13,057 bases of DNA from a virus (taxonomy: Duplodnaviria; Heunggongvirae; Uroviricota; Caudoviricetes), in the IMG/VR virus record IMGVR_UViG_2778261569_000004. One strand, 5' to 3'. The notes under the pieces are model-generated. The model was given only the letters and a program-made list of their open reading frames with translations, did not search any database and was not told where the DNA came from. The position numbers and the translations under genes were made by a program. Positions 1-13,057 of this stretch are shown in pieces. The first letter of the stretch is position 1; every line of letters starts with the position of its first letter.

Positions 1-69
1 ACGATACCGATACCAACGCACCAACTCTTCACGAAAATTAGCCCTGACAAGCTCAGCTATCGTACTCAT
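1..69 (-). CDS. Hypothetical phage protein, N-terminal part only (gene continues past the window start)
   Basis: ATG at 69..67 (minus) preceded by a GGAGG Shine-Dalgarno (plus 80-84, reverse complement); frame stays open to the window edge. Too short to assign a family. Confidence 0.3.
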   Translation of the reverse strand, partial: MSTIAELVRANFREELVRWYRYR

Positions 70-201
70 TTCTTAAAACCTCCTCAAACGCATTCTGACG
101 CATTTTTCATTCTCGCTGCTTATCGGTATACCTTGCACGTGCTTACCTCACCACAGAGCGATTGTGATGCCTTAAAAGCGATTTATTGAAGTGATATTTG
201 C

Positions 202-480
202 TTAATCGAAATTCTTTTCTTTGATTCCTGCGGCCCTGATGGCTTTCATTACTGCAATTACCGTTTTGTCACGCCCATCCTCATAACCCATCGCATAAGC
301 ACCTTCTTCACCATCTTTCCAAAGGTCGTCATTCGATTCGGGCCAGTCGATATCCAGTTCAATAGCAGAGCGCGATGCCTGCCATATCACCCAGGCAAAC
401 TCTTTTAATTCATCGTCTCCCGTGAACTGGCTTTTGTCTTTTGACCACCAGTTTTCAAACTGTCGGTAGCTATCGTTCAC
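202..480 (-). CDS. Hypothetical nin-region phage protein (about 92 aa)
   Basis: ORF track frame 202..495. I place the start at GTG 480..478 because a GGAGAGGG Shine-Dalgarno sits immediately upstream, whereas the TTG at 495 falls inside the terminator T-tract. Acidic, Trp-rich protein; no family recognised. Confidence 0.45.
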   Translation of the reverse strand: MNDSYRQFENWWSKDKSQFTGDDELKEFAWVIWQASRSAIELDIDWPESNDDLWKDGEEGAYAMGYEDGRDKTVIAVMKAIRAAGIKEKNFD

Positions 481-493
481 TTCCCTCTCCCCC

Positions 494-524
494 AAATAAA
501 AAGGCCTGCGATTACAGCAGGCCT
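494..524 (-). terminator. Rho-independent terminator (minus strand) downstream of the replication-gene cluster
   Basis: Perfect 8-bp stem AGGCCTGC/GCAGGCCT (502-509 / 517-524) with a 7-nt loop; on the minus strand it is followed by TTTTATTT (plus 494-501). Confidence 0.55.
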
Positions 525-549
525 GTTATTAACTCAGTGATGTAGATGG

Positions 550-819
550 TCATTGCTTCATCTCCCTTTCCATTTCATCAATGTCAACGTCATCAGGAAG
601 ATGGGAGCAATACGCCGCTATACCATGATGATTTATCTCATACCCTTTGAACGTTACCATCTGGCGCGTAATCTCAACTTCGTTCAGGAATCCGCCATCG
701 CATAACTGCCTGGCTATTTTCGATTTGGTCTGGATTATTGGTAGTGCCTGTTCTTTCAAAGCGTATGATATTTGCGCATCCCATGCCTTTTCGAGAATGG
801 CTAATTGTTTTTTATTCAT
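550..819 (-). CDS. Hypothetical protein translationally coupled to the helicase gene (89 aa)
   Basis: ATG at 819..817 overlaps the helicase stop codon (819-821) by one nucleotide; ORF track 550..819. No family recognised. Confidence 0.5.
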   Translation of the reverse strand: MNKKQLAILEKAWDAQISYALKEQALPIIQTKSKIARQLCDGGFLNEVEITRQMVTFKGYEINHHGIAAYCSHLPDDVDIDEMEREMKQ

Positions 820-2255
820 CAGAATCCTCCTTTCTTCTTGGACTGCGGTTCCTCGCGTTCACGTCGGCGCATTTCAGCAGACTGTTGGTCTGTGTCATAA
901 ATAGCGCCATTTGCCTGAATGCAATACACCGTGCCGGTATTGCCATGACGATTGAGACGAAGGATTAGTTCGGTTTCACCAGGTGGAACACTGTCATCAA
1001 AAGCACCTTCACGATGGATCCCCACCCAATAATCGCAATCCTGTTCAATCTGCCCTGTATCTCGTGAGTCACTTGGTAATGGGCGTTTATTGGTTCGGCT
1101 TTCCAGTGCGCGGTTAAGTTGCGTCAGAAGCACAACAACGCAATCAAGCTCTTTGGCAAGGTTCTTCAGTCCTTTGGTGATCATGCCGTAAGCAAGGTCG
1201 TTGCGATCGGCCTTCTCAGCGGTCATTAGTGTCAGGTAATCGACCAGAATCATGCCAACACATCCTTTTTCTCGCTTGATTCGACGGCTTTCGCTGACGA
1301 TTTGAGCCAGAGATAATCCCGGCGTGTCGTCGATGTAAAGCATGTCGATTTCACTCAAGCGATTGGCTGTTTCGATCGCCCTGTTGAAGTCACCATCGTA
1401 ATCACCCTGATAGCCGTCATCGGCGTCATTTGTCGCCGGAAGGTAAAAAATATTCGGGTTAACACCAGACTTCTGCCCTACCAGTTTTTCCAGTATCTGA
1501 TCACCTGGCATTTCAAGGCTGAACATCAGAGCGGGCTTTTTCTCATGCACTGCGCAATTGATTGCCATCTGGCTGTATAGCGTCGTTTTCCCCATCTTAG
1601 GGCGAGCGCCAATGACAAACAGAGAGCCTTTCACCAGACCTTTCGGTGACAGCATCCTGTCCAGCGATGGGATCCCTGTGCTCATTCCCCGTTGTTCGCC
1701 TGATGGGTCAAATCGCTTCTCAAGGTCGCTAACCCAGTCTTCCATGACCTCGCCAAATGAGCGAAGGCCGCGACGCGATCCGGTTTTTGCATGGTCTGTC
1801 AGTTGCGTGAAAATCGCCTGAATAGCTTCGTACTTCTGCGTCGCAGTCATTCCGTTGCGGGAATAGAGCAATTCCGTCGCTTCAGTCATGCGGTTGATGG
1901 CGTAGCGTTCCATTGCGGTTTCGCGAACCTGCATTGCATAGGCAACGATGTTTGCGGCGCTCGGCGTGTTCTTTGCGATCTCAGCGATATAAGCAAAACC
2001 GCCAACAGACGCCGTTAACGATTTACGCTCCAGTTCATCGAAAAGCGTCAGGCCATCTACTGGCTTTTGCTCCCGGTGCATTCTGGTTATTTCTTCGAAA
2101 AGGATTTTGTGTGGTCGGCTGTAAAATGAATCGGGCTTCAGCATCGCCAGAACTTTCTGGACGCGCTCACTGCTGTCATCATCCAGAAGCAATCCACCAA
2201 TCACCGCCTGCTCTGCCTCGATGCTATGGGGCGGCGCATAAAAATTATCGGTCAT
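819..2255 (-). CDS. Replicative DNA helicase, DnaB family (P22 gene 12-type)
   Basis: N-terminal motif PHSIEAEQAVIGGLLLDD typical of the DnaB N-terminal domain; Walker A GARPKMGKTT; Walker B-like ILVDYLTLM; overall RecA-like helicase layout. Start placed at ATG 2255 ([11 protein letters not shown]) with a GAGGGTGA Shine-Dalgarno upstream, rather than the GTG at 2270 used by the ORF track. Confidence 0.9.
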   Translation of the reverse strand: MTDNFYAPPHSIEAEQAVIGGLLLDDDSSERVQKVLAMLKPDSFYSRPHKILFEEITRMHREQKPVDGLTLFDELERKSLTASVGGFAYIAEIAKNTPSAANIVAYAMQVRETAMERYAINRMTEATELLYSRNGMTATQKYEAIQAIFTQLTDHAKTGSRRGLRSFGEVMEDWVSDLEKRFDPSGEQRGMSTGIPSLDRMLSPKGLVKGSLFVIGARPKMGKTTLYSQMAINCAVHEKKPALMFSLEMPGDQILEKLVGQKSGVNPNIFYLPATNDADDGYQGDYDGDFNRAIETANRLSEIDMLYIDDTPGLSLAQIVSESRRIKREKGCVGMILVDYLTLMTAEKADRNDLAYGMITKGLKNLAKELDCVVVLLTQLNRALESRTNKRPLPSDSRDTGQIEQDCDYWVGIHREGAFDDSVPPGETELILRLNRHGNTGTVYCIQANGAIYDTDQQSAEMRRREREEPQSKKKGGF

Positions 2256-3144
2256 CGTGTTCACCCTCACGAACTTTCAGGTAGGTATTGTCGTTAAGCA
2301 GGAAATCAAATCCCTTTTTGTGCCAGACGGTTCCGCGCTGATGGTTTGGGCGCTCTTCGAACATCCATCGGCAATTTTCGCCTACGTAGCTCAAATAATT
2401 TCTCCAGTCCTGCATCGTGAACCCATGCCCGTCAAGCTGGCGGGTTATCACTCCGGCTTTGCGCCAGAACGTTCGGATCTGGTTTTTACGCTTGTCATTC
2501 AGTGCGCGGATTTTTGGCGCTTCAGGAAGGATTTCGTGGTAAGCATCGACAACATCCTGACAGCTGACGGAAGGTTTTTTCTTGTCAGACTTTTTGTCTG
2601 CTGTGGCACTCTCTAATACGTCAGTATTAGAGATAATATTATTATATTCTTTATCTGTGGTAATTTGCTGGTAATCTGCTGGTACAGTATTGCTTGCAGG
2701 CATTGGTATTGCTGGCTTTGAGGTGGTAATTTGCTGGTAATCTGCTGGTACAAAATTTGACTGATAATCGTCATATTTCTCTACCGAGAAAACTGAGAAT
2801 TTACCGTGTGAAACCCAGTCAATCATGCCGAGTTTTTTGAACTTTCTAAGCAGGTACTGAACGCGATCTGGTTTGAGTCCTGTTTCAAACGCCAGAGAGT
2901 TTCTACCGCCAAGTAGCTTCCCTCTGCCTACCAGAATTTCTCCTGCGTCAGTCATTACATACTCAGGCGTATGCTTTGCTTTGAGGATTAAGTGAACCCA
3001 CAGATGCGCAGCTTCTGCGTCCTTGTAAAACGGCACATCCATAATTTTACGGTGCAGCAAGGCATACCCCTTACCGCTGCTTTGATGCGGTTGTTGTAGC
3101 CTTCTGGCCTCTCTGGCTTCGGCTAGATTAGATATGTTACTCAT
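2245..3144 (-). CDS. Replication initiator protein (lambda O / P22 gene 18 analogue) with origin iterons inside its coding sequence
   Basis: Sits between cII and the helicase as O does in lambdoid phages. Contains a direct-repeat iteron array plus an adjacent AT-rich tract (see repeat feature). AAGGAG Shine-Dalgarno before ATG 3144. The 3' end overlaps the helicase start by 11 nt. The protein is not obviously lambda-O-like by eye, so the family assignment rests on position and the iterons. Confidence 0.7.
2657..2753. repeat. Origin-of-replication iteron array (ori) inside the O-like gene
   Basis: Two perfect 30-bp direct repeats GTGGTAATTTGCTGGTAATCTGCTGGTACA at 2657-2686 and 2724-2753. Each holds two approximately 11-bp subunits GGTAAT(T/C)TGCTGG, with a degenerate copy GGTATTGCTGG at 2705-2716. 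An AT-rich tract (about 2615-2655) lies downstream in the O reading direction, as at ori-lambda. The repeats encode a duplicated [10 protein letters not shown] peptide in the initiator. Confidence 0.7.
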
Positions 3145-3283
3145 GACCTTTCTCCTTCTGCATCAGCTTCACTTTTTCCAACTCAGCCCGGAATCGACAA
3201 GGCTGCTTGAAGCTGGACAGGAAGCGATCACGTAGTATGTGTTTGTGAATTTTGTCCTGGTAAGGACTGAGTTGTTTTGTCAT
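3137..3283 (-). CDS. Putative small protein (48 aa) between cII and the initiator gene
   Basis: ATG at 3283..3281 with an AGGAG Shine-Dalgarno 7 nt upstream; translation [48 protein letters not shown]; stop overlaps the initiator start. Below the ORF-track size cut-off and unsupported by homology. Confidence 0.25.
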
Positions 3284-3317
3284 AATTACTCCTGTGGATT
3301 GATCCAGTCTTTCTACA

Positions 3318-3596
3318 TCAGGCCTCGAAGAATTCGCCGTTCTTCGGGGCTTTTTCTTTTGTCAGGATTCTGGCTACTTTCTTAGCCAGTTCCGCCAACT
3401 CCTCGTCTTCAACACCCCATTCAAGAACAGCCAGAAGCATTCCCATTTTGGGGATGAAGCTATCTTTCCATCGCGAAATTTGCGATTCATTAATCCCTAA
3501 CGCGTCGGCAACCTTTCGCTGACCACGTACAGCAATTCGATTCAGGATGTTGCTTGTAATTGCATTCGCTTTCTTGCGAGTACTTGTAAGTTGCAT
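3318..3596 (-). CDS. cII: CII transcriptional activator (lysogeny establishment)
   Basis: Recognised similarity to lambda CII, including the near-identical block SQISRWK...[13 protein letters not shown]. The translation-initiation region TAAGGAAATACTTACATATG matches the classic lambda cII ribosome-binding site, so the start is ATG 3596, not the upstream start in the ORF track. Confidence 0.85.
3323..3360 (+). terminator. Rho-independent terminator on the strand antisense to cII (oop-like terminator)
   Basis: Stem CCTCGAAGAA/TTCTTCGGGG (3323-3332 / 3340-3349, one G-U pair), 7-nt loop, then CTTTTTCTTTT (3350-3360). It lies on the plus strand inside the 3' end of minus-strand cII, the geometry of the lambda oop RNA terminator. 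Confidence 0.55.
3550..3563 (+). promoter_or_regulatory. CII-binding site TTGC-N6-TTGC (PRE-like establishment promoter -35 region)
   Basis: TTGCTTGTAATTGC on the plus strand inside the cII N-terminal codons, oriented to drive transcription antisense through cro towards cI, as lambda PRE does. The -10 element is not confidently identified. Confidence 0.5.
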
Positions 3597-3655
3597 ATGT
3601 AAGTATTTCCTTAACAAATAAGAAGTTATGCGCATCAAATTATGCGCGTTGTATT

Positions 3656-3698
3656 CCCGCATTTCGGCGGGAATGATGACCATGACTGTTAAAGAGCG
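3656..3698 (-). promoter_or_regulatory. nutR site (boxA plus boxB hairpin)
   Basis: On the minus strand just after the cro stop: boxA CGCTCTTTAACA (plus 3687-3698, reverse complement), then boxB hairpin CCCGC-CGAAAT-GCGGG (plus 3656-3671). The boxB sequence is identical to the one at nutL. Confidence 0.6.
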
Positions 3699-3704
3699 GT
3701 GTTA

Positions 3705-3899
3705 CTATTTGTTTTTCTTGTTGCTTGGGAAAGGACGAACTTCCTCTCCAATCACACTGCCATCAGGCTTTACCGTAACCATGATGTTACGGCCTGCCAG
3801 AATGGCCTTGCTGATAGCGCACTGGATTACACCAAAGTCACTGGCTGCTTTAGCCTGTCCATGGATTTTGGCGTAATCGGCAAGTGTCATTCGAATCAT
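3705..3899 (-). CDS. cro: Cro repressor
   Basis: Recognised similarity to lambda Cro (TLADYA..GQ.K.A.D.GV.Q.AI.KAI.AGR.I.....DGSV..EEV.PFPSNKK). Start placed at ATG 3899 with a GGAGAG Shine-Dalgarno 5 nt upstream. Divergent from cI across the operator region. Confidence 0.85.
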
Positions 3900-3929
3900 A
3901 TGCACTCTCCGTTATTAACCATGAACAAA

Positions 3930-3995
3930 GAATACTACAGGTATTCAAAGCAATCAATACTCAGGGTATTTTTAGTTTAAGTACCTTAGCTATTA
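3930..3995. promoter_or_regulatory. OR operator region: three 17-bp operators with divergent PR and PRM promoters
   Basis: Operators GAATACTACAGGTATTC (3930-3946) and CAATACTCAGGGTATTT (3955-3971) are palindromic; a degenerate third site AAGTACCTTAGCTATTA lies at 3979-3995. Centre spacings are 25 and 24 bp. PR candidate on the minus strand: -35 TTGATT, 17-bp spacer, -10 TATTCT. PRM candidate on the plus strand: -10 TAGAAT at 3994-3999, which places +1 at about the A of the cI ATG (leaderless; no Shine-Dalgarno before cI). Confidence 0.6.
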
Positions 3996-4005
3996 GAATT
4001 AAGCT

Positions 4006-4722
4006 ATGGAAAATAAAAAATCACTGACGACAGAACAGCTCGAAGACGCTAAGCGGCTTAAGGCTTTGTATGAGTCAAAAAAGAAAGAATTGGGAATAAC
4101 CCAATACTCAATCGCTGATGAACTGGGTATCACCCAAGGAGCGGTAGGGCATTATCTTAATGGCAGAAACGCGCTAAACGTTGAGGTCGCATCTGGTTTT
4201 GCACGTTTGTTGCAAGTCTCAATTGCTGATTTTAGCCAGTCAATTGCTGCCAAGGTTGCAGAACAGGCAGAAAGCCTTAAGAGCGATGCCAACGTAAGGT
4301 ATGCAGGGGAATACAGAGCAGGAAAGAGGTATCCGGTGTTAAGCAGTATCCAGGCTGGCTCGTGGTGTGAAGCATGCGAACCATACACCATTAAAGACAT
4401 AGATGTTTGGCTTGAGTCTGACGCGCATATTCAAGGTAATGCGTTCTGGCTTAAAGTGGAAGGTGATTCAATGACGGCACCGGTTGGGTTAAGCATTCCA
4501 GAGGGAACATTCGTTCTTTTCGATACCGGAAGGGAGGCGATCAACGGCAGCTTGGTCATAGCAAAACTTTCTGACTCTAACGAAGCAACATTCAAGAAGC
4601 TGATAATCGACGGCGGAAATAAATACCTCAAGGGACTTAATCCTGCATGGCCTCTCGTGCCAATCAATGGAAACTGCAAGATTATAGGCGTTGCAATTGA
4701 GACAAAACTAAGGCTGGTTTGA
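4006..4722 (+). CDS. cI: CI repressor (HTH DNA-binding domain plus LexA/S24-type autocleavage domain)
   Basis: Recognised similarity to lambda CI: N-terminal LTxEQLEDAKRLKALYE.KK.ELG..Q.S.AD..G and C-terminal FWL.VEGDSMTAP ... ATFKKLI (Ser/Lys dyad). Divergent from cro. Confidence 0.9.
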   Translation: MENKKSLTTEQLEDAKRLKALYESKKKELGITQYSIADELGITQGAVGHYLNGRNALNVEVASGFARLLQVSIADFSQSIAAKVAEQAESLKSDANVRYAGEYRAGKRYPVLSSIQAGSWCEACEPYTIKDIDVWLESDAHIQGNAFWLKVEGDSMTAPVGLSIPEGTFVLFDTGREAINGSLVIAKLSDSNEATFKKLIIDGGNKYLKGLNPAWPLVPINGNCKIIGVAIETKLRLV

Positions 4723-4739
4723 TCACGCAAGGGGCGATT

Positions 4740-5108
4740 ATGGTTGGAACCGCTATAGCAAGCTTTTTTGGGATGTTGGCAATCTCGACAATTTACGGCT
4801 TAGCGCATGCTTTTATTGCGAAATCTCTATCAGAAAAAATAAGCCAGGCTTGGGCGCATAGATCAGCTCGTTTCATGATTCTGGTGATCATAGCAATACA
4901 AGGGATATCTGCATTTATCCTCTATGGATCAAGCTTATACCTATTGTATCAAGGCGCGACATTTACGCCTTACACCAGTGATTACGGAACTCTATACGAT
5001 GGTAGTGAAGACATCACTGTGGCTTGGATCGTCTTTGGTTTATCTATGGCCGTGTCTGTTGTAGCAGACATCATTAAGGTAATTCTCGTCTTAACCTTCG
5101 CTGACTAA
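4740..5108 (+). CDS. Small integral membrane protein in the rex/sie position, co-transcribed with cI (candidate superinfection-exclusion or defence protein)
   Basis: ORF track frame 4719..5108; start placed at ATG 4740 with an AAGGGG Shine-Dalgarno, 18 nt after the cI stop. Three hydrophobic helices predicted by eye (about residues 1-25, 45-70 and 95-120). It occupies the lambda rexAB slot between cI and OL. No homologue recognised. Confidence 0.6.
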   Translation: MVGTAIASFFGMLAISTIYGLAHAFIAKSLSEKISQAWAHRSARFMILVIIAIQGISAFILYGSSLYLLYQGATFTPYTSDYGTLYDGSEDITVAWIVFGLSMAVSVVADIIKVILVLTFAD

Positions 5109-5193
5109 CCTATAATCCCGGCAGCAATAGCTATCGGGATCCACTTCACATATCCCGCATAAAAAGCACTGAACAAGCAGACACCGAAAAAAT

Positions 5194-5281
5194 AAATATC
5201 CTTTGTATTCATTTGCTTATCATTATTTCACCAAAAATAAATACCTTGGGTATTTACACAATAAAATACCTACAGTATTCT
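5194..5281 (+). promoter_or_regulatory. OL operator region and PL promoter
   Basis: Three 17-bp operators of the same family as OR: AAATATCCTTTGTATTC (5194-5210), AAATACCTTGGGTATTT (5239-5255) and AAATACCTACAGTATTC (5264-5280). PL candidate: -35 TTTACA (5253-5258), 17-bp spacer, -10 TATTCT (5276-5281), overlapping the operators as in lambda. Confidence 0.55.
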
Positions 5282-5326
5282 TTAGCCATCAGCAGGGCGC
5301 TGGAAGCCAAACGGAACAGATTGGCA

Positions 5327-5367
5327 GGCTCTTTAACATTGATGGGATTGTCCCGCCGAAATGCGGG
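5327..5367 (+). promoter_or_regulatory. nutL site (boxA plus boxB hairpin)
   Basis: boxA GGCTCTTTAACA (5327-5338) followed by boxB CCCGC-CGAAAT-GCGGG (5352-5367), identical to the boxB at nutR; lies in the leader between PL and N. Confidence 0.6.
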
Positions 5368-5475
5368 AACCAAAGAGTAGTTGGCTTTGGGGTGACGTGA
5401 AGTGCAGCTGCACGACGGCAACCGGAAGATAAGCACCCGGCGCGTCACCGCCAAAGTCAATCATCGGAGGTCAAC

Positions 5476-5748
5476 ATGACAGTAGTCATTACATATCTGG
5501 CTGACGATAACGCCAGAAATCGCCGCAGAGCACGCAGACAGGCTCAACGTGAACAGGCAATGCAAGAGCAGCGACTGGCACGAAAAATTGCGCTAAAGCT
5601 CTCTGGTTGCGTCAGAGCAGATAAAGCAGCATCACTCGGAAGCCTTTGCTGCAAGGAAGAAGATGAACGCAGTGGAAGTATTTGCCTGCCAAACGTAGCC
5701 ATTTACGCGGCAGGATACCGGAAATCAAAACAACTGACAGCGAGGTAA
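5476..5748 (+). CDS. N: Antitermination protein N (P22 gene 24-like)
   Basis: N-terminal arginine-rich motif NARNRRRARRQAQREQ (boxB RNA-binding ARM); C-terminus ...AIYAAGYRKSKQLTAR resembles my recollection of P22 gp24; GGAGG Shine-Dalgarno; first gene downstream of PL and nutL. Confidence 0.8.
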   Translation: MTVVITYLADDNARNRRRARRQAQREQAMQEQRLARKIALKLSGCVRADKAASLGSLCCKEEDERSGSICLPNVAIYAAGYRKSKQLTAR

Positions 5749-5751
5749 GTG

Positions 5752-5976
5752 ATGAATCAGACATACATTCCATCATGCTTGAGAAATCTGCCAAAGCAGA
5801 AAGCAAAGCCCCGCAAGCAAGCCATAAAGGACGCTAAGGCAGAGGTTATTGATCAAGCAATACAATTGCTCAGGGAGGAGTTAAGAAGTGGCAAGCTCGA
5901 AGGAATGATGATGCCCTATCAGCGCGGATATCTATCGGCGATTAGTAAGTTGGAAGTATTGAAGAGTGAATTATGA
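5752..5976 (+). CDS. Hypothetical early protein (74 aa)
   Basis: ATG 5752 with a GAGG Shine-Dalgarno, starting 4 nt after the N stop. Basic N-terminus, predicted helical. In the position of ral or kil-type genes but not recognisably similar. Confidence 0.45.
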   Translation: MNQTYIPSCLRNLPKQKAKPRKQAIKDAKAEVIDQAIQLLREELRSGKLEGMMMPYQRGYLSAISKLEVLKSEL

Positions 5977-6038
5977 ACTATCTGGAATTTCCGGATGGTT
6001 CATTGTTTTGGCAGCAAACCACTTATTTGAGGTGATGT

Positions 6039-6125
6039 ATGGAAGAAGAATTTGAAGAGTTCGAAGAGCATCCTCAGGATGTGATGGAACAATACCAGGA
6101 CTATCCGTATGACTACGACTATTGA
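6039..6125 (+). CDS. Putative very small acidic protein (28 aa)
   Basis: ATG 6039 preceded by GAGGTGA; translation MEEEFEEFEEHPQDVMEQYQDYPYDYDY. Below the ORF-track cut-off; speculative. Confidence 0.2.
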   Translation: MEEEFEEFEEHPQDVMEQYQDYPYDYDY

Positions 6126-6309
6126 TAAAAATCAATGGTGTGGACAATTCAAGCGATGCAATGGATGCAAGCTGCAATCGGAATGCATGGTTAAGCCTGA
6201 AGAAATGTTTCCTGTAATGGAAGATGGGGAATATGTCGATAAATGGGCAATACGAACGACGGCAATGATTGCCAGAGAACTTGGTAAACTGAACAACAAG
6301 GCTGCCTGA
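6109..6309 (+). CDS. Hypothetical small Cys-containing protein (66 aa)
   Basis: ORF track. Four cysteines in CGQFKRCNGCKLQSEC, a possible metal-binding knuckle. Ends just before a terminator. Confidence 0.4.
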   Translation: MTTTIDKNQWCGQFKRCNGCKLQSECMVKPEEMFPVMEDGEYVDKWAIRTTAMIARELGKLNNKAA

Positions 6310-6327
6310 TGGCGGCCTTTATTTTTG
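6298..6327 (+). terminator. Rho-independent terminator
   Basis: Stem AAGGCTGCC/GGCGGCCTT with a TGAT tetraloop, followed by TATTTTTGG. Confidence 0.6.
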
Positions 6328-6374
6328 GCATAAACAACAGAATAAACACAGCACTGAATTATTTGAGGTGAGAT

Positions 6375-6845
6375 ATGACAAAATCATGGAGCGTACCTTT
6401 TCCTGAATCAGAAACTGAACATGATGGAATGCCTGTTTTCTGGAGATTCCAAGCGACAGTTGAAGAAGATGGAATCAAAATATTCGCACTTCAATATATA
6501 GCTTTTCATCAGACAGATCATTATGCATGGTTGGTTCCTGCGCATTGGATTGTTAATTTTAAACCAGCACCAAATCAGTGGTTACAGGAATGGAAACAAA
6601 GGAGAAATAGATATGCAATTAAGAAAGTAGCAAAAAATGCCGAAAGATCTTTTGCATTCCCGACGAAGAAACTTGCCATTGAAAGTTTATTGCGCCGGAA
6701 GAAGTACCATTTAATGAGAATCAAACAAGATTTGGCTGTTGTATCAACTCTTGTTGATGGGATGAAGAATATTGATACATCAATACCAGATATTGAATAT
6801 AACTTTGGACACAACCAAGAAACAGAAAATTGGGTGTTTTATTAG
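6375..6845 (+). CDS. Hypothetical protein on a low-GC moron-like insert (156 aa)
   Basis: ATG 6375 with a GAGGTGA Shine-Dalgarno. A hand count over the first 300 nt gives roughly 37% G+C, against roughly 45% at the start of erf. Bracketed by the terminator at 6298-6327 upstream and by an inverted repeat (6860-6887) and terminator-like hairpin (6951-6974) downstream. No family recognised. Confidence 0.6.
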   Translation: MTKSWSVPFPESETEHDGMPVFWRFQATVEEDGIKIFALQYIAFHQTDHYAWLVPAHWIVNFKPAPNQWLQEWKQRRNRYAIKKVAKNAERSFAFPTKKLAIESLLRRKKYHLMRIKQDLAVVSTLVDGMKNIDTSIPDIEYNFGHNQETENWVFY

Positions 6846-7039
6846 TACGAATAAGCACTGTGTATTCATTCCAACGAGTGAATACACGGAGCAATGTCGC
6901 TCGTAACTAAACAGGAGCCGACTTGTTCTGATTATTGGAAATCTTCTTTGCCCTCCAGTGTGAGGGCCTTTTTATATGCATACCAATAACGCTTCACTCG
7001 AGGCGTTTTCGTTATGCAATCAAACAGAAGGAGCATCCT

Positions 7040-7210
7040 ATGCAACAGTTCGCTATTGCAGGGGCGGCATCGGTTCGCCCTTTCAACCCGATTTTATCGG
7101 TACAGCATTCACGAAAAAATATTTTAACCGGAGCAGACTTTAAACAACCAAGAATGAAAAGCTTGCTCGAAAAGCTTTGGGATATTTTGAAACAACAAGG
7201 CCGCCCATGA
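7040..7210 (+). CDS. Hypothetical small protein (56 aa)
   Basis: ATG 7040 with a GAAGGAG Shine-Dalgarno 6 nt upstream; in frame with the longer TTG-initiated ORF in the track (6935), which I consider an over-extension. Confidence 0.4.
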   Translation: MQQFAIAGAASVRPFNPILSVQHSRKNILTGADFKQPRMKSLLEKLWDILKQQGRP

Positions 7211-7377
7211 GTTTTACAGATAACTGGTCAGACGAAGAATTCATTCGTCAGATGAAAGAATTAATCGGTAACGAAGGAGATATTCATGTCACTTGCAACC
7301 ACCGTGAAGGAGAGCAAGTTACAGAGACGCATGTACACGCAGCAGGCGTTAATGTATCGCCAGAAGGGAGATCGTGA
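7207..7377 (+). CDS. Hypothetical small protein (56 aa), directly upstream of erf (Arf-like position)
   Basis: ATG 7207 overlaps the stop of the preceding gene (ATGA). Its position matches P22 arf, but that is not verifiable by eye. Confidence 0.35.
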   Translation: MSFTDNWSDEEFIRQMKELIGNEGDIHVTCNHREGEQVTETHVHAAGVNVSPEGRS

Positions 7378-7466
7378 AGGTGTTCGCGTATTTTTAAATG
7401 CGGCAAAGACTGAAGTATTAAATCAGCGTTATTTCCTTGGGCCATGTCCATTCTGAGAACAATCAT

Positions 7467-8072
7467 ATGAGCAAAGAATTTTACGCAAGACTGGCAGCTA
7501 TTCAGGAAAATCTGAACGCGCCCAAGAATCAGTACAACTCATTCGGTAAATATAAATACAGAAGCTGCGAAGACATTCTTGAAGGCGTTAAGCCGTTACT
7601 GAATGGTCTGTTTTTATCAATCAGCGATGAAGTTGTGTTGATTGGTAATCGGTATTACGTGAAAGCCACGGCAACTATTACCGATGGCGAAAACAGTCAT
7701 ACGGCAACCGCTCTTGCACGAGAGGAAGAAAGCAAGAAAGGAATGGATTCTGCACAAGTTACGGGAGCTACAAGCTCTTATGCACGCAAGTATTGCCTCA
7801 ATGGTTTGTTCGGCATTGATGATGCGAAAGATGCAGATACAGACGAGCATAAACATCAGCAGAACGCAGCAGCAAAGCAATCAAAACCATCACCTACACC
7901 TGAACAGGTTCTAAAAGCATTCACTGACGCAGCATTGCAGAAAAACACCGTAGAAGAGCTTAAACAGGCGTTCGCCAAAGCGTGGAAGATGCTCGAAGGC
8001 ACACCGGAGCAGCACAAAGCGCAGGACGTTTACAACATCAGACGAGACGAATTAGAAGGAGCGGCTGCTTAA
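7467..8072 (+). CDS. erf: Erf-family single-strand annealing recombinase
   Basis: N-terminal region MSKEFYARLAAIQENLNAPKNQYNSFGKYKYRSCEDILEGVKPLL matches my recollection of P22 Erf closely. Start at ATG 7467, not the upstream start in the ORF track. Confidence 0.8.
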   Translation: MSKEFYARLAAIQENLNAPKNQYNSFGKYKYRSCEDILEGVKPLLNGLFLSISDEVVLIGNRYYVKATATITDGENSHTATALAREEESKKGMDSAQVTGATSSYARKYCLNGLFGIDDAKDADTDEHKHQQNAAAKQSKPSPTPEQVLKAFTDAALQKNTVEELKQAFAKAWKMLEGTPEQHKAQDVYNIRRDELEGAAA

Positions 8073-8455
8073 TGGCACATTCGATTACTGTAAGACTAAA
8101 CAAGCCCGCAAGAGAGTTTCAGGCCGGGGAAAATATCGGATTCAACATCCGTGCTGGCGTTCAGTATTACGATCGCCAGACAAAAAAGAAAGAATGGACA
8201 AACTACAACGCCGTTGTATTTGCCAAGCCGGGAGCGCAAGCGGATTACTACCGTAGTGTTCTTGTTGAAGGTGGCATTGTAGAAATTACCGGAGAAAACA
8301 TCAGGGTTGATGTTTATCAGGGGCAAAATGGTCAATCAATCACTCTTGAATTACTGAATGCAAAGATTGGATTTGCAGCTTCAGGAAATGGCCCGCAGCA
8401 GCAAAGTAGTAACCAGCAGAACACCCCTGTATACGACGATTCCATCCCATTCTGA
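8072..8455 (+). CDS. Putative ssDNA-binding protein with an SSB-type C-terminal tail (128 aa)
   Basis: ATG 8072 overlaps the erf stop (TAATG). C-terminus ...GNGPQQQSSNQQNTPVYDDSIPF has a Gln/Asn-rich linker ending in DDSIPF, mirroring the E. coli SSB tail (DDDIPF). The N-terminal region is not canonical SSB by eye, so the OB-fold assignment is inferred. Confidence 0.55.
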   Translation: MAHSITVRLNKPAREFQAGENIGFNIRAGVQYYDRQTKKKEWTNYNAVVFAKPGAQADYYRSVLVEGGIVEITGENIRVDVYQGQNGQSITLELLNAKIGFAASGNGPQQQSSNQQNTPVYDDSIPF

Positions 8456-8478
8456 TTTAGAAAAATAAGGATTTAATT

Positions 8479-8772
8479 ATGCCAGCGCCTCTGTATGGTG
8501 CGGATGACCCGCGCCGCTGTTCCGGCAATTCCGTATCGGAGGTGCTGGATAAATTCAGGAAAAATTACGACCGGATAATGTCGCTACCGCAGGAAACAAA
8601 AGAGGAAAAGGAATTTCGCCACTGCGTATGGCTTGCAGAGAAAGAAGAACGCGAGCGAATTTACCAGACATCAATCCGACCATTCCGCAAAGCCACATAT
8701 ACCCACTTCCCTGAAATTGACCCGCGCCTGCGTAATTACCGCTCACGCTATGGCGCTATCAGTAATAACTGA
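8479..8772 (+). CDS. Hypothetical early protein (97 aa); size and position compatible with an Abc2-like anti-RecBCD protein
   Basis: ORF track. Lies downstream of erf, where P22 carries abc1 and abc2. The Abc2 assignment is positional and from memory only. Confidence 0.4.
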
Positions 8773-8782
8773 GGAATTTACC

Positions 8783-8950
8783 ATGAGAGGACTTGCATAC
8801 AATCCCAGCATTCTTCCGGCAGAAATGATTATTCGCCAGCGCGTAAAGCCAATGCCATCGAGAGAGGAATTACTTAAGAGAAATTCTTTTCCGTCAGTAA
8901 ATCAAAACAAATATCTGAATGCGATGTTGCGTAAAGGAGGCAAGCAGTGA
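8783..8950 (+). CDS. Hypothetical small protein (55 aa)
   Basis: ATG 8783 with a GAGGA Shine-Dalgarno; same frame as the longer ORF in the track. Confidence 0.35.
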
Positions 8951-9246
8951 GTGTATGTCTTATTGATAAACGTCGACGTGGGCAACAAATACCATCTGTT
9001 GAAATGCCGAATCACACATGGTTTTGCGTACTTGATATCGATGGTATGGATACGTTGGTTGACACTCGTCATTACTGCGATACCGCAACAGCTACTCCGG
9101 CGAAAGCAAAGAAAATTGCTGCTCTGATAGAAAACTGGACTCCACCTGATGGTTGGTGCAATGGGAATGATCGAGATTGGCATGAAAAAATGAAGGGCTA
9201 TATCTGCGATTTCTTACGTAAATGCAACGGATTCAGGGTGATGTGA
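8947..9246 (+). CDS. Hypothetical protein (99 aa)
   Basis: GTG 8947 with a strong AAGGAGG Shine-Dalgarno 8 nt upstream; overlaps the preceding stop (GTGA). No family recognised. Confidence 0.45.
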
Positions 9247-9247
9247 C

Positions 9248-9802
9248 ATGAACAAGATTGACTATCAGGCACTGCGTGCCAAGGCAGAAAAAGCAACGTG
9301 TGGTGAGTGGTCGCTCGAATATGGAGAGGAGAGATTTGATGCTGGTGATGCGCTAATTCATCGTGAAGTTGTTGGATATCTTCCCATTTGCAGAATTGAA
9401 GGAGCGCATCCTGAAAGCGGTTTCGATGAAGATTTCCAGATGGAACAGCAGGCCAATGCTGAATTTATTGCTGCCTTTAATCCAAAGGTTGCTTTGGCAC
9501 TGCTGGATGAACGGGAAAGAAACCAGCAATACATCAAACGCCGCGACCAGGAGAACGAGGATATTGCGCTAACGGTAGGGAAGCTGCGCGTTGAGCTTGA
9601 AGCAGAAAAACAGCGGGCAAAAGTTCTATTTATGGAAAATGCTCGGCTTAAGTCAGGCATAGCCGGTCTGATACACCTCGGTATTCGATATGCAGATGTT
9701 GAGGTCATGAAAATTGCTGGAGATGCCCAGCTTTCTACCCCATGCACTGACAGCATCATAAACAGCATTGCAACAGGCATTCGCATCAAAGGAGGTGAGT
9801 AA
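9248..9802 (+). CDS. Hypothetical protein with a coiled-coil segment (184 aa); possibly Ead/Ea22-like
   Basis: ORF track. The N-terminus QALRAKAEKATCGEW resembles a motif I associate with prophage Ead/Ea22-like proteins; the central region ERERNQQYIKRRDQENEDIALTVGKLRVELEAEKQRAKV looks coiled-coil. Confidence 0.45.
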   Translation: MNKIDYQALRAKAEKATCGEWSLEYGEERFDAGDALIHREVVGYLPICRIEGAHPESGFDEDFQMEQQANAEFIAAFNPKVALALLDERERNQQYIKRRDQENEDIALTVGKLRVELEAEKQRAKVLFMENARLKSGIAGLIHLGIRYADVEVMKIAGDAQLSTPCTDSIINSIATGIRIKGGE

Positions 9803-9978
9803 TGCGTGTGGCATGTATCGGCTTGTTACCGTACCCGACTCGTTTTTGGGCTTCTGCGCTAATTGCAAAGCCGCATGTCCTGATGGCTGACAACATCATC
9901 CCGGCACCAAAGCGCCGCCATACCGGTATTGCATCGGCACGACGAGCAGCAAAGAAACGCAGGAGAGCAAAACGATGA
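9802..9978 (+). CDS. Putative small basic protein (58 aa)
   Basis: ATG 9802 overlaps the upstream stop (TAATG) and its own stop overlaps the next start (ATGA). Translation MRVACIGLLPYPTRFWASALIAKPHVLMADNIIPAPKRRHTGIASARRAAKKRRRAKR. Below the ORF-track cut-off. Confidence 0.3.
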   Translation: MRVACIGLLPYPTRFWASALIAKPHVLMADNIIPAPKRRHTGIASARRAAKKRRRAKR

Positions 9979-10163
9979 AAAACCGTAAAGCAAAGATTCT
10001 GTTAGTTCGTAGAAACGCTCCTGGCGTCTGGCAGTGGGTGAGACTCAGCAACCGACGGGTGGGGTTAATGAAACATTACGGGATGATGGATTGTGGTTTT
10101 TGCAAAAAGCCCAGCGCGGCGCAAAACCGCTGGAAAAACCACTTGCGTACTAAAGGAGAGTGA
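9975..10163 (+). CDS. Hypothetical small protein (62 aa)
   Basis: ORF track; start coupled to the upstream gene. Confidence 0.4.
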   Translation: MKNRKAKILLVRRNAPGVWQWVRLSNRRVGLMKHYGMMDCGFCKKPSAAQNRWKNHLRTKGE

Positions 10164-10164
10164 T

Positions 10165-10374
10165 ATGGCTATTGCCGCAAGTTACACCATGCATCTCTAT
10201 TGTGACTGCCGCCAGTGTACGGAAGGTGTATATCCAGTGCCAGACTTCGGAGAGTATATCGGCACGTCATGGGCTGGTTGTGCAAAAGAGGCGCGTAAGG
10301 ATGGCTGGCGAATAAGCAAAGACAAAACACGTGCTTTTGCGCCTGGGCATAAAGTTTTGAGGATTAACAAATGA
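10165..10374 (+). CDS. Hypothetical small Cys-rich protein (69 aa)
   Basis: ATG 10165 preceded by AAGGAGAG; contains C-x-C-x2-C ... C (HLYCDCRQC...AGC). Confidence 0.4.
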   Translation: MAIAASYTMHLYCDCRQCTEGVYPVPDFGEYIGTSWAGCAKEARKDGWRISKDKTRAFAPGHKVLRINK

Positions 10375-10697
10375 CCACTATTACCAGAGAACAAGCTCTG
10401 AAAATTATTGAGGCAGCCGATGAGGTTATTAGTGCGCTTGCCGGAACTAACGAGGATGTTCACCCTGGTAGCGATAACATGCTACGCCTGTGGGATGACC
10501 TGAATGACCGTTACGCGCCGCCGGAAGTTGTGCGTGAGCTGGCACGGATTGCGCTGGCATCGTTGGAAGCAAAACCAATAGGTGCTTCCACATTGCAGAA
10601 CAGCAAGTTGACGGCACAAGTGACTACCTCAAGGATGGAGAATGGCCTATTGATAATGGGACAATTGAAGTATACGCCGCCCCTCCAGTGCCAGTAG
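10371..10697 (+). CDS. Hypothetical protein (108 aa)
   Basis: ATG 10371 overlaps the upstream stop (ATGA); ORF track. Confidence 0.45.
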   Translation: MTTITREQALKIIEAADEVISALAGTNEDVHPGSDNMLRLWDDLNDRYAPPEVVRELARIALASLEAKPIGASTLQNSKLTAQVTTSRMENGLLIMGQLKYTPPLQCQ

Positions 10698-11173
10698 TAC
10701 CTGAAGAAAAACCAATGCCTAACCCTCTTAGCATGTACGCGGTCGATGCTGTTGCCGCTATTGCAGAGGTGAGAGGCTGGAACGCCTGCCGCGCCGCCAT
10801 GCTTCATGGTGCCGAACCTGTAAGCCAAACTTACAAGTCACAACACACGCAGTTTGAACAAGTTGCTGACCTCTACGAAATGCAATTTGATGACGGTCGC
10901 ACTTGTGCCTTTCACACTGATGCGCAAAAGGCTGCGCAATGGCTTCAGGCATGCGACGGAAACAGGGTTCAGGAATACGTGAAGCTGGAGCGATTGCGTA
11001 ATGCGCTATCGGGCAACTCTCCGGTAACTCCGGATGGTTGGGTTATGGTGCCGAAGGAACCAACTCAGGCCATGATTAAAGCGTGGCTATCAGAGATTGC
11101 TAACTTTCGCGGTCATGCTGCTGGTTACAGGGCTGCTCTTGAGGCAGCACCACAGGAGGTTAACCGTGGCTAA
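10688..11173 (+). CDS. Hypothetical protein (161 aa from a GTG start; frame open upstream to 10538)
   Basis: ORF track, GTG start with no clear Shine-Dalgarno. Protein-like sequence (DGEWPIDNGTIEVYAAPPVP) continues upstream in the same frame, overlapping the previous gene. Confidence 0.4.
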   Translation: MPVVPEEKPMPNPLSMYAVDAVAAIAEVRGWNACRAAMLHGAEPVSQTYKSQHTQFEQVADLYEMQFDDGRTCAFHTDAQKAAQWLQACDGNRVQEYVKLERLRNALSGNSPVTPDGWVMVPKEPTQAMIKAWLSEIANFRGHAAGYRAALEAAPQEVNRG

Positions 11174-11450
11174 CCTGCAACTTGCCGTCAAAGGTGAATA
11201 CTTCGATGCCATGATTCGCGGAGAGAAAACAGAAGAGTATCGCCTGTGTAATGACTACTGGAATAAGCGAATTATGTTCCGGGAGTATGACCGCCTGATT
11301 ATCACAAAGGGATATCCGAAGCGCGACGACTCCAGCCGCAGAATAGACGTCCCGTATGACGGATATGAAATCAAGACAATCACACATCCCCACTTCGGCG
11401 ATAAACCGGTAAAGGTGTTCGCGATAAATGTGAATATCGGCAATGAATAA
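11166..11450 (+). CDS. Hypothetical protein, possibly ASCH/PUA-like (DUF3850-like), about 95 aa
   Basis: GTG 11166 preceded by AGGAGG. The pattern KGEYFDAMIRGEKTEEYRLCND ... resembles my recollection of DUF3850/ASCH phage proteins. The ORF track gives a longer upstream start at 11097. Confidence 0.4.
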   Translation: MANLQLAVKGEYFDAMIRGEKTEEYRLCNDYWNKRIMFREYDRLIITKGYPKRDDSSRRIDVPYDGYEIKTITHPHFGDKPVKVFAINVNIGNE

Positions 11451-11485
11451 CAACCCTCGCATTTGCGGGGATTTCTTTTATCTGA

Positions 11486-11509
11486 ACTCGCTACGGCGAG
11501 TTTTGTTTT
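11486..11509 (+). terminator. Rho-independent terminator
   Basis: Stem ACTCGC/GCGAGT with a TACG loop, followed by TTTTGTTTT. Confidence 0.5.
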
Positions 11510-11821
11510 ATGGAGATGATTATGGTCTGTTCAACATTCAACCATCTAACGTTACAGAAATACCAGCCAGACCCTGAAGATTTATGCTCACTGTGTGGCG
11601 GAAATCATGGTAAAGCCGCCATGATCGAATGTAATGACAAAATCCACATTTGCCTTAATTGCGTTGATGTCCTCGTTGATATCAAAAATGAGAGAGAAGA
11701 TAAAAAGCGTAGCGAGGCTATTCGCGCCTTAGATTCATGGATGCGAGATGGGTATAGTGCTGCGCAAATTTATGACTTAGCAATATCAAAAGGCGAAATA
11801 CCAGGAGTACGCATCGAATAA
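11510..11821 (+). CDS. Hypothetical zinc-ribbon-like protein (103 aa)
   Basis: ORF track. Two Cys pairs, CSLCGG and CLNC, about 20 residues apart. An alternative start at ATG 11522 is better placed relative to the GGAG at 11512-11515. Confidence 0.45.
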   Translation: MEMIMVCSTFNHLTLQKYQPDPEDLCSLCGGNHGKAAMIECNDKIHICLNCVDVLVDIKNEREDKKRSEAIRALDSWMRDGYSAAQIYDLAISKGEIPGVRIE

Positions 11822-11861
11822 GACATAACCGATATTCGAATTGAAGAACTGAAAGAACACC

Positions 11862-11888
11862 AAGCCGCCTGATGGCGGTTTCTTTTTG
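11862..11888 (+). terminator. Rho-independent terminator
   Basis: Stem AAGCCGCC/GGCGGTTT with a TGAT tetraloop, followed by CTTTTTG. Confidence 0.6.
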
Positions 11889-11902
11889 CCTGGAGAATTA
11901 AG

Positions 11903-12094
11903 ATGACCGATACCAGCCTGATTCCTGAGAAAGAAGTGATGAACAAGCTCGGTGTTTCATCACGTCAGACAATCTGGAACTATACCAAACGACACGGATT
12001 TCCGAAGCCAGTCAGAACCCACCCCAAATCATACCTTCGTGAAGCTGTTGAAGGGTGGATTCTTAACGGTGGCGTTAATCAGAAATGCTCCTGA
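11903..12094 (+). CDS. xis: AlpA-type excisionase / DNA-binding regulator
   Basis: AlpA-family pattern (EVMNKLGVSSRQTIWNYTKRHGFPKPVR...W). The 3' end overlaps the integrase 3' end, convergently. Confidence 0.55.
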   Translation: MTDTSLIPEKEVMNKLGVSSRQTIWNYTKRHGFPKPVRTHPKSYLREAVEGWILNGGVNQKCS

Positions 12095-12499
12095 TGTGCC
12101 AGAACAATTTATCAGCGTGAAGCTCATACGCTTTGCGCTGAGCCTCTATCCAATCGTGTTTATTGTATACGGACATTATCCCGCCAAGTTCATGACCGAG
12201 CATTCGCTCAGTAACATGAGGCTCGACATTCATCTCGGACAGACGTGTAACAAGCGTTCTTCTGAAATCATGTGTTCGCCAGTAACCTAGATCCATCCCT
12301 CCCCTTATTCTATTTACGAATCGGTTGGCTGCAGCGATGCTGATCGGTTTGTTTATGTCTTCTCCAGGGAAAAGAACATCATTGTACGTTGTCATGGCCT
12401 TTTCGAGAAAAGGCTTAATTTGTTCGAAGATTGGACGACGGATAACATTACCCATCTTGCTATGCTCTTTCGGTACGGTCCATACGTTGTCCAGCAGGT
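12075..12499 (-). pseudogene. int: Tyrosine integrase, C-terminal catalytic fragment only; N-terminal part displaced by an IS insertion
   Basis: Catalytic motifs HDFRRT and LGHELGGIMSVYNKHDW (Tyr nucleophile) present. The reading frame runs upstream without a stop to the IS terminus at 12500; the conserved box I Arg and the N-terminal domain are absent from this side. Confidence 0.75.

Positions 12500-13057
<558 letters not shown>

Follow-up and report, generated by a model that had tools for sequence, protein, structure and literature searches.

Gene content and order of the locus

The window, that is, the whole stretch of 13,057 nucleotides that was analysed, is the immunity and early-left region of a lambdoid prophage. 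On its minus strand lie the gene for a DnaB-like helicase, a replication gene, and genes resembling cII and cro; on its plus strand, the following features surround the open reading frame (ORF) under study, which lies at positions 8479-8772.

4006-4722, plus strand: cI-like repressor of the LexA family
5476-5748, plus strand: N-like antiterminator
6109-6309, plus strand: ral
7040-7210, plus strand: cIII
7207-7377, plus strand: 56-aa Gp33-like ORF, part of the same Rec module as abc2 (phrog_2123, E=2.2e-39; MSFTDNWSDEEFIRQ...)
7286-7456, plus strand: 56-aa ORF directly upstream of erf (phrog_1723, E=4.5e-34)
7467-8072, plus strand: erf, encoding an Erf-family single-strand annealing protein, the presumed partner of Abc2 (PF04404 ERF, 152 bits; phrog_155)
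8072-8455, plus strand: 127-aa SSB-like (OB-fold) gene whose product has a C-terminal DDSIPF tip (phrog_44 'single strand DNA binding protein', E=1.6e-27)
8467-8471, plus strand: Shine-Dalgarno-like AAGGA, read from the sequence, 7 nt before the ATG of abc2
8479-8772, plus strand: abc2, 97-aa Abc2 orthologue (Pfam PF11043, phrog_656, PDB 8B1T_A)
8783-8950, plus strand: DUF2737 gene, homologue of P22 orf56 (PF10930, 112 bits; 73% identical to P22 Orf56)
8947-9246, plus strand: DUF7739 gene
9248-9802, plus strand: Ead/Ea22 gene, with several small genes downstream
11903-12094, plus strand: xis-like gene

The gene order in P22 is c3, kil, arf, erf, abc1, abc2, orf56, and then the ea genes. The window gene shares the pL-operon position of P22 abc2, with erf on the upstream side and the orf56/DUF2737 gene on the downstream side, and this last gene occupies the same position in P22, MG40, Sf101, and HK75. 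Judged by gene order, the window gene is in the slot orthologous to that of P22 abc2. An earlier reading of the letters without database searches (the sequence-only reading) had placed the protein where P22 carries abc2, which agrees with the gene order and with the identity of the downstream neighbour as an orf56 homologue. It had also described the gene as downstream of erf; this is correct, but the two genes are not adjacent, the 127-aa SSB-like gene lying between them. Two terminator-like hairpins (6950-6967 and 6988-7007) are located just upstream of cIII, where P22 has tL2, and would fit N-dependent delayed-early expression.

Neither Gam (PF06064), nor Abc1, nor an exonuclease was detected among the ORFs scanned from N (5476) to xis (11903) with Pfam and/or PHROGs, in keeping with the earlier remark that no Gam is visible here. 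A BLASTP comparison of P22 Arf with the two small ORFs upstream of erf gave no match, and a short 'SDEEFI' motif is common to Arf and ORF 7207-7377. The full P22 system, consisting of Abc1, Abc2, Arf, and Erf, is not reproduced in the window, which is without abc1 and without a recognisable arf. The Erf proteins of P22 and the window are 73.8% identical, being near-identical up to about residue 150 and divergent beyond it. In HK75, the annealing protein combines an unrelated N-terminal domain with a C-terminal one that resembles its counterpart in P22 Erf. From these comparisons, it looks like the C-terminal domains of the annealing proteins are shuffled independently of the Abc2 type. Avoidance of Chi sites was considered as possible support for Abc2 and set aside as uninformative, since 0 Chi octamers on both strands of the window compare with ~0.4 expected by chance in 13 kb.

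ORF 8479-8772 encodes a member of the Abc2 family

In the ORF list of the window, the plus-strand ORF runs from an ATG (8479-8481) to a TGA (8770-8772) and encodes 97 amino acids, exactly the coordinates and length given in the sequence-only reading, which had also called the size similar to that of Abc2; P22 Abc2 likewise has exactly 97 residues. The protein matches the Pfam family PF11043 (Anti-RecBCD_p2; "Bacteriophage P22, anti-RecBCD protein 2") with 213.2 bits and E=4.3e-64, residues 1-97 aligning with positions 1-97 of the 97-position profile, where the gathering cutoff is 25 bits. The match to phrog_656 ("abc2 anti-RecBCD") is similarly complete (184 bits, E=7.8e-55, residues 1-97 on positions 1-98 of 98). 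A search of solved structures returned as its sole match chain A of 8B1T/8B1U, "Anti-RecBCD protein 2", with an ungapped alignment of residues 1-97 to residues 1-97, 89 of the 97 being identical (E=9.5e-59). An NCBIfam scan of six proteins of the module, including Abc2, produced 0 matches, and the RefSeq label of the DNA-identical gene is "phage anti-RecBCD protein" (WP_001111307.1).

A length of 97 codons is by itself no evidence of a gene, because the six-frame list of the window contains 104 ORFs with 40 aa or more. Chance produces many ORFs of such length in the window, and a 63-aa antisense ORF at 8555-8746 overlaps abc2, so that a chance ORF or a mis-called frame had to be weighed. Against this stand E-values of 1e-55 to 1e-64 versus curated families and a solved structure, a bias of the substitutions to synonymous ones, and conservation of the gene in 225 phage records as well as in 1100 E. 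coli genomes, and we regard a spurious ORF as already refuted by the sequence evidence. On the same evidence, ORF 8479-8772 is a real gene and an Abc2 orthologue, more than merely Abc2-like. What had been proposed as a possible Abc2-like anti-RecBCD gene is a full-length member of both the Pfam and the PHROG family.

Comparison with P22 Abc2 and conservation of the RecC interface

As P22 reference, abc2 from the annotated P22-pbi genome was aligned to the window gene. The two proteins are identical at 91 of 97 residues (93.8%) without gaps, and the genes at 267 of 294 nucleotides. This alignment is the check that the sequence-only reading had suggested, and it revealed similarity over all 97 residues rather than the absence of similarity named there as refuting. 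The codon differences comprise 18 synonymous and 6 non-synonymous ones, in which purifying selection on a protein-coding gene is evident at the level of sequence. From P22-pbi to the window, the substitutions are L32R, I50V, A65S, K76H, I78P, and D86N. P22 has Salmonella as its host, whereas the host of the window prophage is E. coli.

The published cryo-EM structure of RecBCD with Abc2 shows Abc2 as an extended helical protein bound to the Chi-recognition ("inactivated helicase") domains of RecC (PMC9836394). Residues 6-52 are ordered in Abc2 alone, and the order extends to residue 66 when the host protein PpiB is bound (PMC9836394). To assess the interface, we used the list of 15 Abc2 residues joined to RecC by hydrogen bonds or salt bridges according to ePISA (source data of Fig. 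4 in PMC9836394). All 15 (A3, R13, C14, S15, G16, Y30, I33, M34, L36, E39, K41, K44, E45, R47, and H48) are identical in the window protein. Within the ordered region 6-52, only L32R and I50V are substituted; R32 is also present in the Abc2 proteins of HK022, Sf101, and HK75, and V50 is a conservative change peculiar to the window allele. Pro68, the residue that engages host PpiB, is present in the window protein and invariant in an alignment of eight Abc2 sequences. This residue almost certainly occupies the active site of PpiB; it is required for co-purification of PpiB, which the P68A mutant loses (PMC9836394).

The sequence in PDB 8B1T differs from window Abc2 at positions 92 and 93 besides the six differences from P22-pbi, and five of these eight differences (76, 78, 86, 92, and 93) are in the C-terminal tail. 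Residues 90-97 of 8B1T chain A read RYAGISNN, and P22-pbi and six other near-full-length homologues with the motif have RYGAISN(N/D). The mismatch between 8B1T and the homologues concerns two residues, both located in the disordered tail.

Distribution and variation of Abc2 homologues

Genes for Abc2 are found in 225 phage records, and, of 5426 complete E. coli genomes, 1100 (about a fifth) carry close copies of abc2, which are consistently annotated as "phage anti-RecBCD protein". In a survey from 2013, Bobay et al. counted Abc2 with PF11043 in lambdoid prophages of E. coli and Salmonella (PMC3784561), and the modularity of Rec modules was catalogued in a 2025 survey of 325 lambdoid phages (PMC12315714).

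The Abc2 proteins of HK022, HK75, Sf101, HK542, mEp043, and CUS-3 are 95-97% identical to that of the window, with only one to four residue differences, and all share with it the 'E. coli-type' residues R32, S65, H76, P78, and N86. HK022 and Sf101 have the same order of erf, 127-aa SSB-like gene, abc2, and DUF2737 gene as the window, and, by DNA similarity, the arrangement is also found in HK542, mEp043, mEp213, CUS-3, PhiR12 phages, and Stx1a/Stx2 phages. HK75 has the same Abc2 type, but a different N-domain of the annealing protein and a classical 168-aa SSB.

More divergent forms are encoded by the Salmonella phages MG40/ST104 (68% identity), by the HK620-like JEP4 and Stx2a phages (~60%), and by the Flyfo siphovirus Tbat2_3 (~35%). 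They belong to the same family, and their genes are likewise found at the Rec module's distal end, but several of their RecC-contact positions are unlike those of P22 (R13N, K44A/N, and H48R/K). Among the positions that do not vary across the eight aligned sequences are P2, P4, L5, G7, A8, D9, R12, C14, S15, P68, R90, G92, A93, I94, and N96. The divergent types are accompanied by Erf and Abc1 in MG40, by a Sak4-type ATPase and SSB-2 in JEP4, and by Erf, SSB, and an RNase T-like exonuclease in Tbat2_3.

Co-variation of the Abc2 type with its partners was considered and rejected on this small sample, in which E. coli-type Abc2 accompanies the window-type Erf and short SSB-like protein in HK022 and Sf101. 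The same type is also found in HK75 with a classical SSB and an annealing protein that has a P22-like C-terminal domain, and P22-type Abc2 goes with Abc1. In this small sample of sequences, the Abc2 variants track the host genus, not the partner.

An SSB-like gene in the position of abc1

The gene between erf and abc2 starts within the erf stop, the two overlapping in the sequence TAATG. The DDSIPF end of its product resembles the C-terminal tip of bacterial SSB. No Pfam match was obtained for this protein, and a search against PDB sequences returned nothing meaningful (best E=0.18). Its assignment as Abc1 was tried and rejected: global alignment to P22 Abc1 gave 18% identity with a negative score, and BLASTP gave no match. 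The protein shares 94% identity with Sf101 gp26, and the HK022 reference record contains the corresponding ORF without annotating it. Homologues of ~50% identity occur in many Vibrio phages, where they are annotated as SSB/OB-fold proteins.

Overlapping small ORFs upstream of erf

The ORFs 7207-7377 and 7286-7456 overlap by 92 nt in different frames. Both are conserved as 56-codon ORFs, and their families, phrog_2123 and phrog_1723, are each loosely labelled 'recombinase'. In the PGAP annotation of the near-identical O111 genome NZ_CP077519, ORF 7207-7377 is uncalled and ORF 7286-7456 is called as hypothetical. Within the overlap, 10 of the 14 substitutions between the window and Sf101, the only pairwise comparison that was informative, fall on third codon positions of ORF 7286-7456. 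Because of this distribution, ORF 7286-7456 gives the impression of a genuine coding sequence, and the Gp33-like ORF seems free of constraint in its C-terminal half.

By BLASTP, the product of ORF 7207-7377 is identical to HK75 Gp33 at 55 of 56 residues (98.2%). In a preprint of July 2026, HK75 Gp33 is the only protein reported to suffice for triggering the toxicity of P2 OLD, and it is proposed there as a new RecBCD manipulator (10.64898/2026.07.10.737580). The published 'gp33' interval would also include the first 30 codons of the other ORF. A second link to OLD lies downstream of abc2, where the DUF7739 protein (8947-9246) is 94% identical to HK75 gp27. The preprint describes this phage protein as homologous, at 54% identity, to the OLD inhibitor Oad2 (HK446 gp27) and as giving HK75 no protection from OLD (10.64898/2026.07.10.737580).

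The composition of the module invites a reading in which Erf, the SSB-like protein, Abc2, and the Gp33-like protein carry out a mechanistically distinct takeover of RecBCD. Gp33 would then be the main modulator, or the tail substitutions K76H, I78P, and D86N would retune Abc2 to a partner such as the SSB-like protein. The basis named for this reading is the lack of Abc1 and of a recognisable Arf, together with the presence of a minimal SSB-like protein with a host-SSB-like DDSIPF tip and of a Gp33-like protein. We consider such a departure from the P22 scheme distinctly improbable.

State of the prophage

Positions 1-12499 of the window are 99.8-99.9% identical to prophages of E. coli O111:H8/H-/NM. 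In the best-matching genome, the prophage adjoins sbcB and its integrase gene is intact, and the abc2 DNA is identical to that of the window. In the window, the integrase gene, on the minus strand in the region of about 12075-13057, is truncated, and only its C-terminal part is left (a 126-aa ORF with a Phage_integrase domain). The similarity to intact O111 prophages ends at 12499, from where an IS3-family transposase (rve domains) runs off the end of the window. The window prophage may be unable to excise and is perhaps defective. The plus-strand ORFs 10371-10697 and 10688-11173 represent one gene, which is a RefSeq pseudogene with an internal stop in a near-identical O111 prophage.

These observations raise the question of whether abc2, although intact, at present lies idle in a decaying prophage, kept silent by cI, unable to take part in a productive phage cycle, and without a role in the strain. 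The interruption of the integrase gene by the IS3-family element at about 12500 and the pseudogene in the RefSeq copy of the prophage (window 10371-11170) speak for this, as does lambdoid biology, by which the pL operon would be silent in a lysogen carrying a cI-like repressor such as that at 4006-4722. However, neither the ORF nor its ribosome-binding site nor any part of the Rec module is damaged, and several O111 genomes share them in identical or almost identical form; a missing int interferes with excision but leaves the expression of early genes upon induction untouched. We regard idleness as rather unlikely; it concerns the current use of the gene and not its identity, and is compatible with Abc2 as the best explanation of the latter.

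Proposed mode of action of the window Abc2

Taken together, the results lead us to interpret the window gene, with a probability of roughly 0.93, as abc2 of an E. coli O111 lambdoid prophage, which would encode a RecC-binding, Chi-blinding Abc2 in an Erf-based recombination module. For the window allele, we infer RecC binding and loss of the Chi response from the 94% identity and the conserved interface. The structure and biochemistry of Abc2 were obtained with E. coli RecBCD, the host enzyme of the window prophage (PMC9836394).

Abc2 modifies rather than inhibits RecBCD: helicase and exonuclease activities are largely retained, the helicase activity not being substantially altered and the exonuclease being kept in vivo, and the response to Chi and RecBCD-dependent recombination are lost (PMC9836394). 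Phages with Abc2 are described as having no exonuclease of their own, with which the scan of the window agrees, and Abc1 is needed for full activity in P22 infection (PMC9836394).

In the mechanism that we propose, abc2 would be expressed as a delayed-early, N-antiterminated gene of the leftward pL operon. By homology to P22, the helical part of the protein, which makes up its N-terminal two-thirds (residues 3-66 or so), would bind the surface of RecC's Chi-recognition domains, Pro68 would be offered to PpiB, a prolyl isomerase of the host, and the C-terminal tail, which is disordered, would extend toward RecB. Binding would leave the helicase and nuclease of RecBCD running and the enzyme blind to Chi, and the outcome of host recombination and RecA loading would be blocked. 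The Chi-blind RecBCD could then serve as the resection nuclease that the phage is without (PMC9836394, PMC12315714, PMC3784561), and the single-stranded DNA would pass to the phage annealing protein Erf, probably with the adjacent SSB-like protein. Loading of Erf onto RecBCD products is a hypothesis even for P22, and the authors of the structural study call this step untested (PMC9836394).

Family labels such as 'anti-RecBCD' or 'inhibitor of RecBCD nuclease', and the lack of another known inhibitor in the window, could also be taken to mean that the protein is a total inhibitor of the Gam or gp5.9 type, a DNA mimic abolishing both nuclease and helicase activity. Like Abc2, lambda Gam and T7 gp5.9 are small early phage proteins aimed at RecBCD and encoded beside a phage recombinase, but they are unrelated to it in sequence and differ from it in mechanism. 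As DNA mimics, they obstruct the site of DNA binding and suppress every activity of the enzyme; Abc2, by contrast, attaches to RecC, and most of the helicase and nuclease activity persists. The window protein has no match to Gam and matches the Abc2 family only. Moreover, Abc2 sits on those domains of RecC that recognise Chi, not at the DNA entry site (PMC9836394), and the residues that contact RecC are all conserved in the window protein. Total inhibition is, in our view, very hard to credit beside a Chi-blinding Abc2.

Significance

The window abc2 is already known as an ordinary, routinely annotated, and common E. coli prophage gene, and Abc2 has already been characterised genetically, biochemically, and structurally. 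The analysis is confirmation only: what had been guessed from position now stands as a secure annotation. The general biology is of current interest, since defences such as retrons and OLD sense phage proteins that interfere with RecBCD (PMC9836394; 10.64898/2026.07.10.737580); the window gene is one more copy and brings nothing new to this picture. The analysis also shows that the Erf/SSB/Abc2 recombination module of this O111 prophage is intact. Among the side observations, the most useful is ORF 7207-7377, with its 98% identity to HK75 Gp33: if the preprint is right, the module may hold a second RecBCD-directed function besides Abc2.
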